A stretch of 64,000 bases of DNA, taken from contig JBBSKH010000003.1 in assembly GCA_038256495.1 (NCBI GenBank), forward strand, positions 1,929 to 65,928, given 5' to 3'. Numbering within the stretch: the first letter of the stretch is position 1; every line of letters starts with the position of its first letter. Source of the DNA: Chitinophagales bacterium (lineage in GTDB: Bacteria > Bacteroidota > Bacteroidia > Chitinophagales > Chitinophagaceae). Below, in pieces: positions 8,968 through 18,245 of the stretch. Made by a program: the position numbers and the translations under genes. The notes below the pieces were generated by a model. The model searched no databases. It was not told the DNA's origin and worked only from the letters and a program-made list of their open reading frames with translations.

Positions 8968-11900
8968 ATGGAAGAAGATCAAATGTTGTCCTTGCTGGCA
9001 AGGCTCTGCGGCGACATTACATTAGCTGAAAATAACGACGCCAACCAGGTGATGCGACTGCAACAGGTAATTGCATCTGCTATTATTGAAGATCCCCAGC
9101 AACCAATCGTACACGATTTTCAATTTGACCGGGTAGAAAAATTTACCAGCAAAAAGCTGGACCCCGATGACTTCAAACACCTGGGCAACCTATTGCAGCA
9201 AACAAAAGAAAACCAGGTAAAAATAGATCCTTCCATCCGCATCTTTCGCAGGGAAGTGCCGTTTGTGAGCAGCCAGGTGAGAGGAAGTGCGCCTAGTTGG
9301 GCCCGTGGAGCCAGCATTATAGAAACAATAGGACCAGTTTTTAACCGGGATGGCAGGCGTTTTTGGTTCGATCTATATCGTATTATACCTGTGGTGGAAG
9401 TATGGCTGGCAGGGGCCGCACGGCCCTTCCTGCTATTACCGTTGGAAGTAAATAATCGTATAAATATCATCGGCCCACGTAAATATAAAGTACCTAAAGG
9501 CAGCGCATGGATACATGCCGACCTGTTTGCAGCAACATCGCCAGACAACCTCTATTGCGGGCTCACCGTAAAAGAAGGAGAGTTGAATTTTACAGAACCC
9601 TTGAGTATTACTTCCGGCAACAAACTTATTATTCCCGCAGGCATGGAAGTATCGGTATCGCTGCAACCAGACCAGCAAGCAGTTACCAATAACTCGCCAG
9701 ACAGCAATGGCATAGATGTAAAAGATGCTGCCATCGCATTACCCAAAACACTTTCGTTTACACTAAACCATACCGGTAAATCACTTAATGCAGATGATGC
9801 TTCCTGGAATTTATACGGACAAAAAATAAACTTCCGTTTCGATAATACCAAACCCATGCGATGGGTGCCGGAACTGAACCGCATTGCCCTGCCATACAAA
9901 CAAGATGTAACAGATTTTGTAGTGAAACAAAGTAAAAGTCCTGTATGTACAATAGAAGGCAAAGCAAAAATTGCAGATGCATCCTGGGTACTTACGGCTG
10001 CCGCAATTAACATTAGTGCACCATTGCAGGCCGAAGGCACAGGAGCTATGGCTATTGCAGTAAAGGAAGGATTAACTGCAAGCTGGATAGGATTAAAAGA
10101 CGCTAGTCTTTTTGAAAAAAGTAGTGCGGCTTTAAAAAATGCCCTTGTGATGTTGATGCCGGGCAGGCTAAATATTTCTACCTTATTTGCGGCTAACCCT
10201 ATTGGTAGGCAGCGTTACCAGCTATGGCAGGAGCCACCTTTGCCGGAGGCAGCATCGCCGGTACAGCATATCGACCTCCAATATACCAGCCAGTTTGCTT
10301 TCTTTTACGACTGCCTGCAAGCCGGCACAGAAAATATTGCAGTACAAACAAATTGCAAATCACATATTAATAAACCTGTGCAGGCAGACGGAAGCCCATT
10401 CGCTGTTGAAAGTCTGCAAACGATGCTGGTATTAAGTGTGAGCAAGGCAATACAAATTGTTATGCTGTATGATGATAATATTTTGCACGACAACTGGATG
10501 AAACATCATCCACCTATACCTGGCACAGCCGATAACCCGGTCAGGTTTACCAGCACAGCTTTGGCATTGAACAATGCCTTGCTCACCGTTAGTCCTGTGC
10601 AAAGTATGTTGTTGTATGGCGACTTGAAAAATGAAGACAGTTTTGATAAATGCCTGCTGATTTTTGCTTACGGCTTATTACAATACCTGCCCACCTTGCC
10701 GGATCCTTATGCTGCTAATGTTTCGTTGTTACGACGCCAGCGATCAAGAAACCAATCTGGAAAACCGAATGAATATTTTATTAGCCAGGTGGATGCTCTG
10801 CTCGTGTGCATCATGAACTGGGAAAACACGAACCCGCCAGCAGTAAACTTTTTTATGGGCGATAAACAGCACACCGCTTCCGCCGCTTCACCAGTTACCC
10901 GTATTACAGCAAACGATGTTTCGGGCAAATTCAAACTGTCTGATTTAAACAATCCTTCGGCGCTTTCTTCACAGGCAGATATGCAGTATACTAAAAATGC
11001 CAGGCTGCAGGCACGCAACTGGCAGTCAGTTACAGATGACGCATCAGAAGCTGCAATGATGCTTGATAGCCAGGAACGACAACAACGATTGCTGAATGCT
11101 GACCTTGCCGGCAAGAGCAGGACGCCTTTCCATCATGCGTTTACATTATTAGATGTAAGCACCAATGCCGACCTAATGGGTGTAAGCGTAGGCACCGGAA
11201 GAAACGAATATATCTACGAAAAAACCCACACAGTAAATGATATTTCCGGCGCACCACTTAGCATTAGTGGACTTGACATGCATGCTAACAGCAGGCTGGT
11301 ACAGGTATTTGCACTACCACAAATCAGTTGGGAGCCTATGATCAACCTTTCAAATGTAACCAACCCCGCTCAAGATCCATATCCTGGCATACTTTATTTT
11401 TTAAACGATGGCGTTCCATTACAAATTGCCAACACGGGAAATGCAGCCGTAAACATAGCTCCACTCCCACTAACCAAAAAAATAACTGAATGGTATAATC
11501 AAAACAGCCTGCCGCTATGGAGTTATTTTACCCTAAGCAACGGCATGCTGGCAGTAGCACTATACATGAAGAATAATGATGGCACCAAACCAATTTTCAA
11601 TTTAATAAAAGAAAAATTTAATGGCGACCTCAGCACCGGTCTTCAAATAAAAACAGAAGGATTTTTTGATAACATCAATCAACACAAAAAATTCTTAGGC
11701 AGCGCCCATCAGCTAACCAATGTAAATAACCTTTTCTTCCCCACTACCAACAACCGGAGTGTACTTTCCGGTAGCGTTACAGAAATATTCAACAAAGAAT
11801 TTGGCACAGATACCGGCTTTCAGTTAAGCAAATATGTACCGCTGGAACGCTACGATTTCAGCGGATACGGCGCCAATACTTTCAGCCATTGGATAAATGC

Positions 11901-17100: not shown

Positions 17101-18245
17101 AGTATGTAAACGATGAACTGTACAGTAGTACCGAGCCTCGTAAACGTTACCTATGGCTTGAATTTGCAGAACCCATAAAGAATAAAGCAGATGCACTTTA
17201 TATAAGAATGCTTGCATATTCGCCCGACCCGCTGCTAAGCGATTGGGATGCCGGCATGTTTAAAGCACCTGAAGAAGCTCCGCTTCCCATCAATCCAGAA
17301 CCAATCAGAATCATCAGTCCATCACACACAGATGACCGAAGCGGCCTTAATGCTATGCAGGAATTAACAAAGGCCGATATTAGCGACGTTCACTACCTGG
17401 TGCCTTTGCCACCGGGCATACATGCTTCATCACCCGAGATGTTTGGATTTTTTACCTACGAGGTGAGGGCAGGCCATAAGAAAGGCTGGAGTACTGCGCA
17501 GGCAAGATTTGGAAGGGCCTTACGCACTACCGGTGTTCAACACCCGCCACCACAACTTTTTTGCATTGTTACCCGTAATGAAAAACATATTATGGTTACC
17601 GCTCCGTTTGCTCAAACCGTATTTAATGGTGCAGACGTAACGAGTAATCCTCCCCGCACTCAGCTATGGGCATTGCTGTATGCGCAGGTGCACCGTGCAG
17701 ACGATAAAGCCTACCGGAATATCTTGTTAGATGACCAGCTCTTTATACGCAAACGCCGTAAGATAGATGCTACTGGTTTACCGGTTGTAGACATAAACAC
17801 CGATGCTGTACAATATGGTATTACCGGTTGGAAAAATAAAGATGTGGTGGCCATGTTGCAAAGTTATGGCCTGCCTGCAGATAGTTCGTTGAGTGTGCTC
17901 GTGGTGGAAATGCTGCCCACTTATGATAAATTTTTCGCCCGCAGCAATACCGGTAGAAGAAGCTCGCTGGTAGAATCTAGCCATGCTACTAATATGCAAT
18001 TGATGAATCTGCAACAGGGAATGAGTGTTGAATATTTTAAGAATACCGTACAGGATATTGGCAGGGCAGCGATGAACAAACAAAAAAAATTAGAAGAAGA
18101 TCGCTACCTGCAAATGGAGGAGGCATTTATTGACCAGGCTAATAAAGAGGAAAATATCCGGCCCCTCACCAATCAATTGGGTAGTGAGCGAATTCTGCGA
18201 ACCAGTACCCTGGTTGCTGTGCCGGCCGTTTGCTGCACCGAATAG
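14187..18245 (+). CDS. Giant hypothetical protein B (1352 aa), family unknown
   Basis: An uninterrupted 4.1-kb ORF starting 44 nt after gene A on the same strand. I saw no signal peptide and no recognisable catalytic motif. It has a C-terminal coiled-coil-like stretch and a terminal ..VPAVCCTE. Confidence 0.7.
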   Translation: MSVARISILTFPQQWKNNQLTIRVLVMPRNFNPLIPDQVAPGTPAWVDAGIALTAKLVSDGSLYPSLTAVNQQFALVGINMPANTRPIFEDMRDQLGPINSTKRQEPAKPADRARKYLPESYRGSFNFIKPRTPDAVIDDSYNCIIKDKTPFTGPFGTVHDLSWGKVFAHCLRQPALAERVGFVYEASFAVDPALVKNGSWIYVDLADGCSYKTAMDDTSIADPIKGQKLVKRYAARLPKLKAGKERPLFAAIQFPVLLKNPEPADKLDENIPIVPANFDELLIETEQYDDGFCKIVHANQPVSSDLLREKEDKDLPVITDAGIRLGWDDEQLLIWMNRQIKQDETLAAGRRTDAPMGVMQYRVDVRHFSDEVPNPNPWTPLCKVQNKAALTIGGQQIDAAGAGRELGVEVYPAKPRPDENFWLPQYYTHWIGKSLVLADNDAIDIYHKENNVVPDRQVAKNDLYDIAGLENMQLLYGNKYEFRVRLADVSGGGPGVAEQRAYAGPSPEGLCDFRRRVQPQAVRLLNNLPEKDDEYFTGDQLNMRRPLLGYPSVLFTGAYQNAVADLIADTPAAATEKRPIGLPDPNVEAVEILVEVKALEMDMLLRYDTDSHESYAKLYITKRLFPADLNGECNIPVSFVDAPVLNFTDSQDLGTLGLITGGNSIDNHSDIVLPTSRDIRITLRPVVKNIPEYYAQHSNLPKKGKPIAFRTRRASTNEDALFKEINDVDAIRGIWLQPDTNTYLKATLTEIFVENNSPAHVSSMMERLTDAIDKTLEVEAIGLSLVGKAGVRVQFGASRLIRHNMSPDSTSITISTKSDLLNQWIIPITLILNRDWTWDGASPVSFNIYRQQKFVGAGLDEAAQNTIAWGTEKLVGDIEMKQAINIKALYNPDRSQTYLCFLDAVEPKPAAAAGFPEEIMVRYRISPVLKSVPTQAEPPVAADKLLQLHLPITGKPADLPAIVSAGIAQSKYVNDELYSSTEPRKRYLWLEFAEPIKNKADALYIRMLAYSPDPLLSDWDAGMFKAPEEAPLPINPEPIRIISPSHTDDRSGLNAMQELTKADISDVHYLVPLPPGIHASSPEMFGFFTYEVRAGHKKGWSTAQARFGRALRTTGVQHPPPQLFCIVTRNEKHIMVTAPFAQTVFNGADVTSNPPRTQLWALLYAQVHRADDKAYRNILLDDQLFIRKRRKIDATGLPVVDINTDAVQYGITGWKNKDVVAMLQSYGLPADSSLSVLVVEMLPTYDKFFARSNTGRRSSLVESSHATNMQLMNLQQGMSVEYFKNTVQDIGRAAMNKQKKLEEDRYLQMEEAFIDQANKEENIRPLTNQLGSERILRTSTLVAVPAVCCTE

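Follow-up and report, generated by a model that had tools for sequence, protein, structure and literature searches.

A 64,000-nucleotide stretch of contig JBBSKH010000003.1 (the window), from a soil-type bacterium of the order Chitinophagales, carries a self-contained two-gene operon that encodes two giant proteins, A and B. The two genes are passed on and transferred together across about 12 bacterial phyla and, as far as the sequence and fold resources reach, appear to belong to no described kind. The C-terminal end of A is composed of amphipathic β-strands that may engage a lipid bilayer. We tentatively read the operon as a self-contained, horizontally mobile, binary membrane-inserting complex that acts as a toxin or a suicide effector, a reading that is possible rather than probable.

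The A–B pair across bacteria

The first-pass annotation of the window described two uninterrupted, co-directional open reading frames (ORFs) 44 nt apart, interpreted as a dedicated, self-contained module of two orphan proteins. An ORF scan recovers both frames at the positions listed in Table 1. They are real genes, since stop-free runs of 1724 and 1352 codons at 45% GC could not arise by chance and each protein has hundreds of full-length homologues. The word orphan is therefore apt in one sense only: no family is assigned to either protein, but relatives are abundant. A word-indexed search returned 61 full-length homologues for A and 785 for B, all named 'hypothetical protein'. An exhaustive profile search with residues 900–1724 of A found 861 clusters at 50% identity, 471 of them at E ≤ 1e-30, and the best 150 matches are all of the same architecture or fragments of it. 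A profile of B matches at least 557 loci in species-representative genomes. The literature, searched by description and by accession, yielded no account of the family.

The two genes stay together. In all 79 loci whose sequence reaches far enough 5′ of B, a co-directional A homologue immediately precedes it, and the five loci without A are cut by a contig end. This adjacency extends to loci in Draconibacterium, Sorangium and Acidobacteriota and to a Bacillus plasmid. Across 65 loci, the identities of A and of B to the window proteins correlate with r = 0.99. The two-component module proposed earlier thus stands, with the pairing kept in every informative locus over about 12 phyla. The spacer between the genes has a median length of 36 nt across the family and does not exceed 70 nt in 54 of 77 loci; the few long spacers hold obvious insertions. 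In locus L008 the inserted sequence is an NmrA-like ORF of ~290 residues (279–1381), and in L039 it is a DUF559-like ORF (6095–6623). The pair therefore tolerates insertions between its genes. A 2252-residue protein (P0168) from a single 13-kb JGI metagenome contig joins A 1–1185 to B from about residue 275. It was considered as a Rosetta-stone fusion of A and B and set aside as unreliable; it was seen once and is probably an in-frame deletion or an assembly artefact or chimera.

According to record titles, the hosts belong to Bacteroidota (Chitinophagaceae, Saprospiraceae, Draconibacterium and Mucilaginibacter), Ignavibacteriota, Acidobacteriota, Chloroflexota, Actinomycetota, Gemmatimonadota, Verrucomicrobiota, Planctomycetota, Desulfobacterota, Pseudomonadota, Myxococcota (Sorangium) and Bacillota (a Bacillus toyonensis plasmid). 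Both monoderm and diderm phyla are represented, and some copies reside on megaplasmids. Cultured carriers include Hanamia caeni BO-59, Segetibacter sp. 3557_3, Sorangium sp. So ce302, Bacillus toyonensis DC11 (plasmid pDC11_1), Microvirga terrae and Chlorohelix allophototropha. Two contigs, L039 and L084, are oddly labelled. On the contig labelled 'Candidatus Brocadia', B is 72% identical to window B. The copy on the contig labelled 'Citrobacter freundii' is 35–38% identical to the window and no closer to it than the most distant copies from other phyla. Both labels look like metagenome binning errors, and taxon counts taken from the labels of metagenome-assembled genomes (MAGs) therefore need care.

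Sequence and predicted structure of A and B

Window A and B match no family in Pfam (models to 2025) or PADLOC-DB v2 at E values up to 1, and none is assigned from NCBIfam (2026) or PHROGs. The sole matches in the family scans are at chance level, such as sucrose synthase with an E value of 0.13. No Pfam family recurs at E up to 10 among 13 diverse A and nine diverse B members. Searches of PDB sequences, whether with single sequences or with profiles, returned nothing for either protein. The two proteins are not paralogues of each other, as they are unrelated by hhalign and BLAST. A regular-expression search found no P-loop, HExxH or CxEQ thioester motif in A or B, internal repeats are absent from both, and neither has a Pfam match to Por_Secre_tail or RTX. 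These searches agree with the earlier statements that Walker A and HExxH motifs, tandem repeats, RHS/YD repeats and a C-terminal domain (CTD) of the type IX secretion system (T9SS) are lacking. The reported absence of a signal peptide or N-terminal transmembrane segment also extends to the family: no hydrophobic, signal-peptide-like or transmembrane-like N-terminus occurs in A, in B, or in 57 A and 117 B homologues. Lacking export signals, both proteins are made in the cytoplasm.

AlphaFold models were obtained for residues 525–1724 of A (55 homologues; mean predicted local distance difference test score (pLDDT) 70.9, predicted template-modelling score (pTM) 0.63) and residues 1–1200 of B (69 homologues; mean pLDDT 83.1, pTM 0.63). 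The model of A is nearly all β. That of B starts with an N-terminal α/β region, after which FnIII/Ig/MG-like sandwiches form a compact array, and no transmembrane-like segment is present anywhere in B. The pTM of 0.63 in both 1200-residue models suggests compact architectures rather than beads on a string.

The models were compared by Foldseek with PDB and, for A, also with BFVD. A returned only matches with template-modelling (TM) scores of at most 0.1, mostly membrane barrels, lipid-binding sheets and tail fibres. PapC, LptD, SlpA, ApoB100, MTP and a Chorein_N protein are among these weak neighbours. B matched only generic runs of FnIII, cytokine-receptor, MG and arrestin sandwiches. The match to IGF1R has a probability of 1.0 but a TM score of 0.2–0.3, and that to E. 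coli α2-macroglobulin (A2M; PDB 4rtd) has an E value of 5e-5 and a TM score of ~0.08. Other A2M and C3 entries were also matched, over most of B. The profile and fold searches, negative or generic throughout, uphold the first-pass view that neither protein belongs to a characterised family.

The weak BFVD neighbours of A are tail-fibre-like all-β proteins, and the FnIII-like sandwiches of B resemble those of the T5 tail tip (Foldseek rank 46). On these grounds A and B might derive by domestication from tail-tip or fibre proteins of phages, or be an adhesin that is exported to the surface by an unknown route. We give this origin very little probability. The TM scores do not exceed 0.1, PHROGs provides no match, and searches of 50,697 phage records and 2.9 million viral contigs found no copy. 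Sheath, tube, baseplate, spike and tail genes are absent among the neighbours in 84 loci, and the proteins themselves contain no signal peptide, tandem repeat or T9SS CTD.

The best-conserved parts of A are a core block at residues ~940–1050, with the motif RYDFSGYGA..FSHW ... GRTAHEVIQVKS..YPW.IRVVRTIT, and the C-terminal module. Six polar residues, R961, D963, E1000, H1071, D1130 and D1132, are invariant from Bacteroidota to Bacillus and Tistrella. The Pro-rich stretch PAPAPPPQP, previously described as a hinge, is present but falls in a variable segment.

The hydrophobic C-terminal module noted in the first-pass annotation is confirmed as the sole strongly hydrophobic region of A, confined to its last ~180 residues. 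In the model its strands are connected by hairpins and are 11–18 residues long, mostly 15–18. One face of the strands has a hydropathy of +2.3 to +3.3 and the other, composed of polar or small residues, of −0.5 to −2.5 (means over 55 homologues). The β hydrophobic moment of the module is about twice that of the remainder of A. The Gly-rich amphipathic C-terminus is retained in divergent A subfamilies (Bacillus, P0247, P0264, P0296 and P0324), as is a final '..ISI.F.IDI..'-like strand, even where alignment fails. P0061 carries an extra transmembrane-like tail at the C-terminus of A. The hairpins are modelled with moderate pLDDT (56–70), which could reflect an oligomeric or metastable segment. 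Among the candidates listed earlier (a pore or toxin, a cytoplasmic assembly, a defence or predation system), the amphipathic C-terminus appears to favour a membrane-directed one.

Among the residues of B that never vary from Bacteroidota to Bacillota are D139, D140, Y142, C144, K295, H298, Q301, W328, D330, H1069, E1084, E1092, H1097 and H1119. C144 and H298 possibly form a Cys/His centre or metal site; C144 falls in a lower-confidence part of the model. The C-terminal end had been described as coiled-coil-like. This assignment does not hold: the segment is a non-conserved linker, absent in Bacillus and Tistrella, and the conserved feature is the Cys-Cys tail that follows it. Eukaryote-type prenylation of the tail, of either CaaX or Rab CC type, was considered and rejected, as the distance of the two cysteines from the C-terminus varies between 0 and ~7 residues. 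The Cys/His and His/Glu clusters of B could constitute a hidden catalytic or metal site and, together with the C-terminal Cys-Cys, an inter-terminal metal lock.

These clusters also allow A and B to be viewed as a cryptic two-subunit enzyme acting on a macromolecule. The active sites would be formed by C144/H298 and H1069/E1084/E1092/H1097/H1119 of B and R961/D963/E1000/H1071/D1130/D1132 of A, and the Cys-Cys tail would serve as a swinging arm. MerA uses vicinal C-terminal cysteines on mobile tails in this way. In favour, the cluster residues do not vary between Bacteroidota, Bacillus and Tistrella, and the tail follows a flexible linker of variable length. Invariant residues may equally mark interfaces, however, C144 is modelled with lower confidence, and Pfam, NCBIfam, PDB profiles and Foldseek reveal no catalytic family. 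An enzymatic role is quite unlikely.

Mobility and surroundings of the locus

The pair behaves as a horizontally mobile accessory module, as judged from its patchy distribution, its insertion-sequence (IS) and toxin-antitoxin flanks, its presence on megaplasmids and the several divergent lineages within one genus. In the Sorangium sp. So ce302 chromosome (L003 1–18321), genes for an IS21-family transposase and IstB lie on both sides of the pair. The arrangement resembles a composite transposon and could explain how the module moves. On Tistrella mobilis pTM1 (L086), RelE/RelB and HipA toxin-antitoxin modules flank an intact B. The A homologue on this plasmid (7288–11987) is split over the overlapping frames 7288–10980 and 10587–11987, as in a frameshift or a pseudogene, in a cultured strain. 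Segetibacter MAGs and an isolate contain three lineages of the pair (L012/L014, L033 and L061/L068/L083), whose B proteins are ~67%, 47% and 39–41% identical to window B. The lineages differ by up to 60%, which implies either that transfer has spread subfamilies of long standing or that single genomes carry several copies.

No conserved third gene accompanies the pair. Generic histidine kinases and ABC transporters make up the largest clusters of neighbours, found in 8 of 85 loci. The proteins encoded right beside the pair, 131 in all, match 136 Pfam families, none of them in more than three members. No secretion or lysis partner is conserved among the neighbours, and no transporter is linked to the module in the neighbourhoods examined.

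Some flanks are suggestive of a classical defence island, in which the pair would be a dedicated system against phages. An Acidobacteriota copy adjoins helicase/nuclease and AAA_14–DUF4143 genes, other copies adjoin ABC-three-component or toxin-antitoxin genes, and the module is self-contained and mobile. Yet no PADLOC model matches A or B, and neither contains a nuclease, NTPase or nucleotide-signalling domain. The defence-model matches among the 131 flanking proteins are scattered and mostly of helicase, ATPase or RmuC type, with no family in more than three, all as raw counts. Defence genes often travel in phages, prophage-type contigs and viral contigs, where no copy of the module is found. 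The absence from phages and the heterogeneous neighbours weaken the defence-island reading, which we consider distinctly unlikely.

The features of the window locus are collected in Table 1. The AT-rich region that the first-pass annotation had placed upstream of A, shared with a divergent short-chain dehydrogenase/reductase (SDR) gene, is recovered, and the intrinsic terminator it had placed at 18303–18331 agrees with the hairpin within 3 nt. Matches to sigma-70-like promoters in the leader are weak and do not rise above the level of shuffled sequence, and an Rfam search of the locus found no riboswitch or leader element. The base composition is close to that of the neighbours, as previously noted: the module has 45.4% GC and the remaining window 41.6%, and GC at third codon positions of the module lies inside the range of its neighbours. 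The statement that no integrase or transposase is nearby likewise holds for the flanking window ORFs, which were scanned against Pfam.

Table 1. Features of the A–B locus in window coordinates.
Feature	Coordinates	Strand	Description
SDR gene	8070–8777	−	adh_short, E 8e-51 (Pfam)
AT-rich leader/promoter region	8778–8967	+	190 nt, 27.4% GC; common to A and the divergent SDR gene
Gene A	8968–14142	+	1724 residues, ATG start; all-β giant protein with no family assignment (ORF scan)
A ~640–715	10885–11112	+	least conserved segment of A (12–27% identity); modelled as a long helical hairpin
A ~940–1050	11785–12117	+	most conserved core block, 66–70% identity across phyla; many invariant R/D/E/H/W
A 1111–1119	12298–12324	+	Pro-rich PAPAPPPQP, within a variable segment
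A 1541–1723	13588–14136	+	C-terminal module of 8–9 Gly-rich amphipathic β-strands; putative membrane-inserting or lipid-binding end
A–B spacer	14143–14186	+	44 nt, 27% GC
Gene B	14187–18245	+	1352 residues, ATG start; N-terminal α/β region, then compact β-sandwich array (ORF scan, model)
B 139–301	14601–15089	+	invariant motifs DD.Y.C (C144, 14616–14618) and DGF.KI.H..Q (H298, 15078–15080)
B 951–1200	17037–17786	+	best-conserved block of B, 48–61% identity; invariant H1069, E1084, E1092, R1094, H1097, H1119 (H1069 to H1119, 17391–17545)
B ~1245–1322	17919–18152	+	non-conserved linker, variable in length and sequence; missing in Bacillus and Tistrella
B 1326–1352	18162–18242	+	invariant C-terminal tail P..(x)..LG..RILRTS.L..VP.VCC
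Intrinsic-terminator-like hairpin	18300–18330	+	13 pairs, 5-nt loop, T-run; end of the operon

The genes around the module in the window are those of ordinary metabolism, including an EgtB/EgtD-like pair, a betaine-type ABC transporter, the SDR, an acyl-ACP desaturase and a GH3 protein. The transporter comprises an ATPase (3438–4388) and a fused permease and OpuAC binding protein (4345–5958). It is followed by overlapping genes for an EgtB-like protein (FGE-sulfatase and DinB_2 domains, 5951–7123) and an EgtD-like histidine methyltransferase (7087–8073). By its domain content, the region 3438–8073 looks like an ergothioneine biosynthesis pair adjoining an osmolyte transporter. A 63-residue ORF with a basic C-terminus (18473–18664), just 3′ of the terminator, was considered as a further part of the module and rejected, as it has no counterpart beside the module in 86 related loci.

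Proposed mode of action and relation to known systems

We propose that A and B form a large, compact, β-rich hetero-complex. The C-terminal module of A would be the working end, with its 8–9 strands inserting into or wrapping a lipid bilayer to create a pore, a lesion or a lipid-binding sheet. B would be a multi-sandwich scaffold or recognition subunit that gates or scaffolds the engagement of the membrane by A. The tethered, invariant Cys-Cys tail of B, possibly together with the Cys/His centre, may hold, anchor or release A. Since monoderm as well as diderm phyla carry the pair, dependence on any single secretion system is unlikely. As no secretion or lysis system ever travels with the pair either, the complex would have to act from the cytoplasmic side, be released by lysis or translocate itself. 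A role in conflict between organisms is favoured because the distribution is patchy and mobile. The complex would be either a toxin that needs no dedicated secretion system and is set free by, for example, lysis, or a suicide effector of the abortive-infection type that acts on the producer's own membrane.

Several points weigh against this proposal. Engagement of the membrane by the A C-terminus is what we infer from strand patterns and a model, and ordinary β-sandwiches also contain amphipathic strands. The Foldseek matches of A, at TM scores of at most 0.1, are no evidence of homology. A hypervariable domain, common in toxins and immune sensors, is absent from both A and B, and the module has no linked lysis cassette. 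The phage and viral collections hold no copy, the window neighbours are housekeeping genes, and the flanking proteins elsewhere are heterogeneous in both their Pfam and their PADLOC matches.

Some of these features would also suit a non-conflict cytoplasmic assembly, either a structural scaffold or a lipid-handling complex in which the A sheet binds lipid or the inner leaflet in the manner of a β-taco or lipoprotein. Its role would lie in accessory physiology, such as membrane maintenance, storage or stress. Both proteins lack export signals, their conservation is uniform along the chain with no hypervariable region, and each is modelled as a compact structure (pTM 0.63). Housekeeping genes surround the pair in the window, its neighbours elsewhere are heterogeneous, and ApoB100, MTP, LptD and a Chorein_N protein are among the weak structural neighbours. 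Nevertheless, we consider this assembly unlikely. The transfer-driven, patchy spread, the IS and toxin-antitoxin flanks, the plasmids and the divergent lineages per genus are typical of accessory or conflict genes, and no AsmA, TamB or other lipid-transfer family is matched at E up to 10.

Among known systems, the module behaves most like the Tc toxins, being giant, signal-less, operonic and spread over many phyla, and its putative working end looks most like that of β-barrel pore-formers. A–B nevertheless lacks features that define each of these two groups, the Tc toxins and the pore-forming toxins (PFTs). It likewise lacks defining features of gasdermin–protease modules, A2M proteins, AsmA/TamB proteins, contractile injection systems, secreted adhesins and the catalogued defence systems.

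Tc toxins are encoded in operons of giant signal-less proteins (1000–2500 residues) that transfer has scattered over Gram-positive and Gram-negative phyla, and plasmids or islands often carry them. These toxins do without a classical secretion system and combine a membrane-penetrating end with Ig-like domains. A–B is likewise a giant, signal-less, multi-phylum operon scattered by transfer, but it differs from the Tc (ABC) complexes (TcA/TcB–TcC) in several respects. VRP1, TcA/TcB-binding and neuraminidase-like Pfam domains are missing, as are RHS/YD repeats, and A–B has two conserved genes whereas Tc has three. A is all-β, whereas the TcA channel is α-helical. The C-termini of A and B are conserved, in contrast to the variable toxic C-terminus of Tc.

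With β-barrel PFTs and binary toxins of the aerolysin/haemolysin and anthrax PA type, A shares amphipathic Gly/Ser/Thr β-hairpins, and the pair shares their two-component logic. PFTs are proteins of 30–90 kDa with signal peptides and one or two hairpins per protomer, whereas A, a cytoplasmic protein of 190 kDa without a signal peptide, carries about four hairpins at its end. No Pfam, PDB or Foldseek match connects it to the aerolysin, leukocidin, PA or MACPF/CDC folds. Gasdermin–protease modules offer an analogy in which a cytoplasmic pore-former lies beside a large sensor-like partner, with a possible Cys/His centre in the case of B, and acts from inside. Cysteine lipidation is known in gasdermins. 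Gasdermins are proteins of ~250 residues, and A–B differs in size and gene order, contains no gasdermin, caspase or subtilase domain and has no PADLOC match.

B resembles A2M and complement MG proteins, such as E. coli ECAM (YfhM) and MagD, in its size, its compactness and its strings of MG/FnIII sandwiches. It lacks A2M and MG Pfam domains, the CxEQ thioester, a lipobox, a signal peptide and a PBP1c partner. The likeness is generic to multi-sandwich proteins. A is similar to AsmA-like, TamB and bridge-like lipid-transfer proteins in being very long and β-rich with one strongly hydrophobic sheet face. However, A has no N-terminal membrane anchor, the 13 members scanned show no AsmA or DUF490 match at E up to 10, and the hydrophobic sheet is confined to residues 1541–1723 rather than running over the full length. 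No PHROG or Pfam tail family is found in A–B and no gp6-, gp7- or gp27-like protein among the neighbours, which sets the pair apart from contractile injection systems, type VI secretion baseplates and phage tails. Giant adhesins secreted by T9SS or type I secretion systems differ in having a signal, a Por_Secre_tail, RTX or tandem repeats, or a linked transporter.

Taken in full, the proposal is that A–B is an undescribed pan-bacterial binary machine, in which A (~190 kDa) would deliver a multi-hairpin barrel or sheet under the control of B (~150 kDa) through its Cys-Cys tail, independently of secretion systems and with new folds or domain arrangements in both proteins. This, too, is held tentatively and could well be wrong. 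The question is directly testable, because the family includes cultured organisms. New protein architectures are possible, since neither model has a specific structural neighbour in PDB. The 9 kb of strongly conserved coding DNA represents a large investment, maintained as an obligate pair by hundreds of species that range from Bacteroidota to Bacillota. Solving its function could bring to light a new mechanism of membrane action or a new type of system for bacterial conflict or stress.

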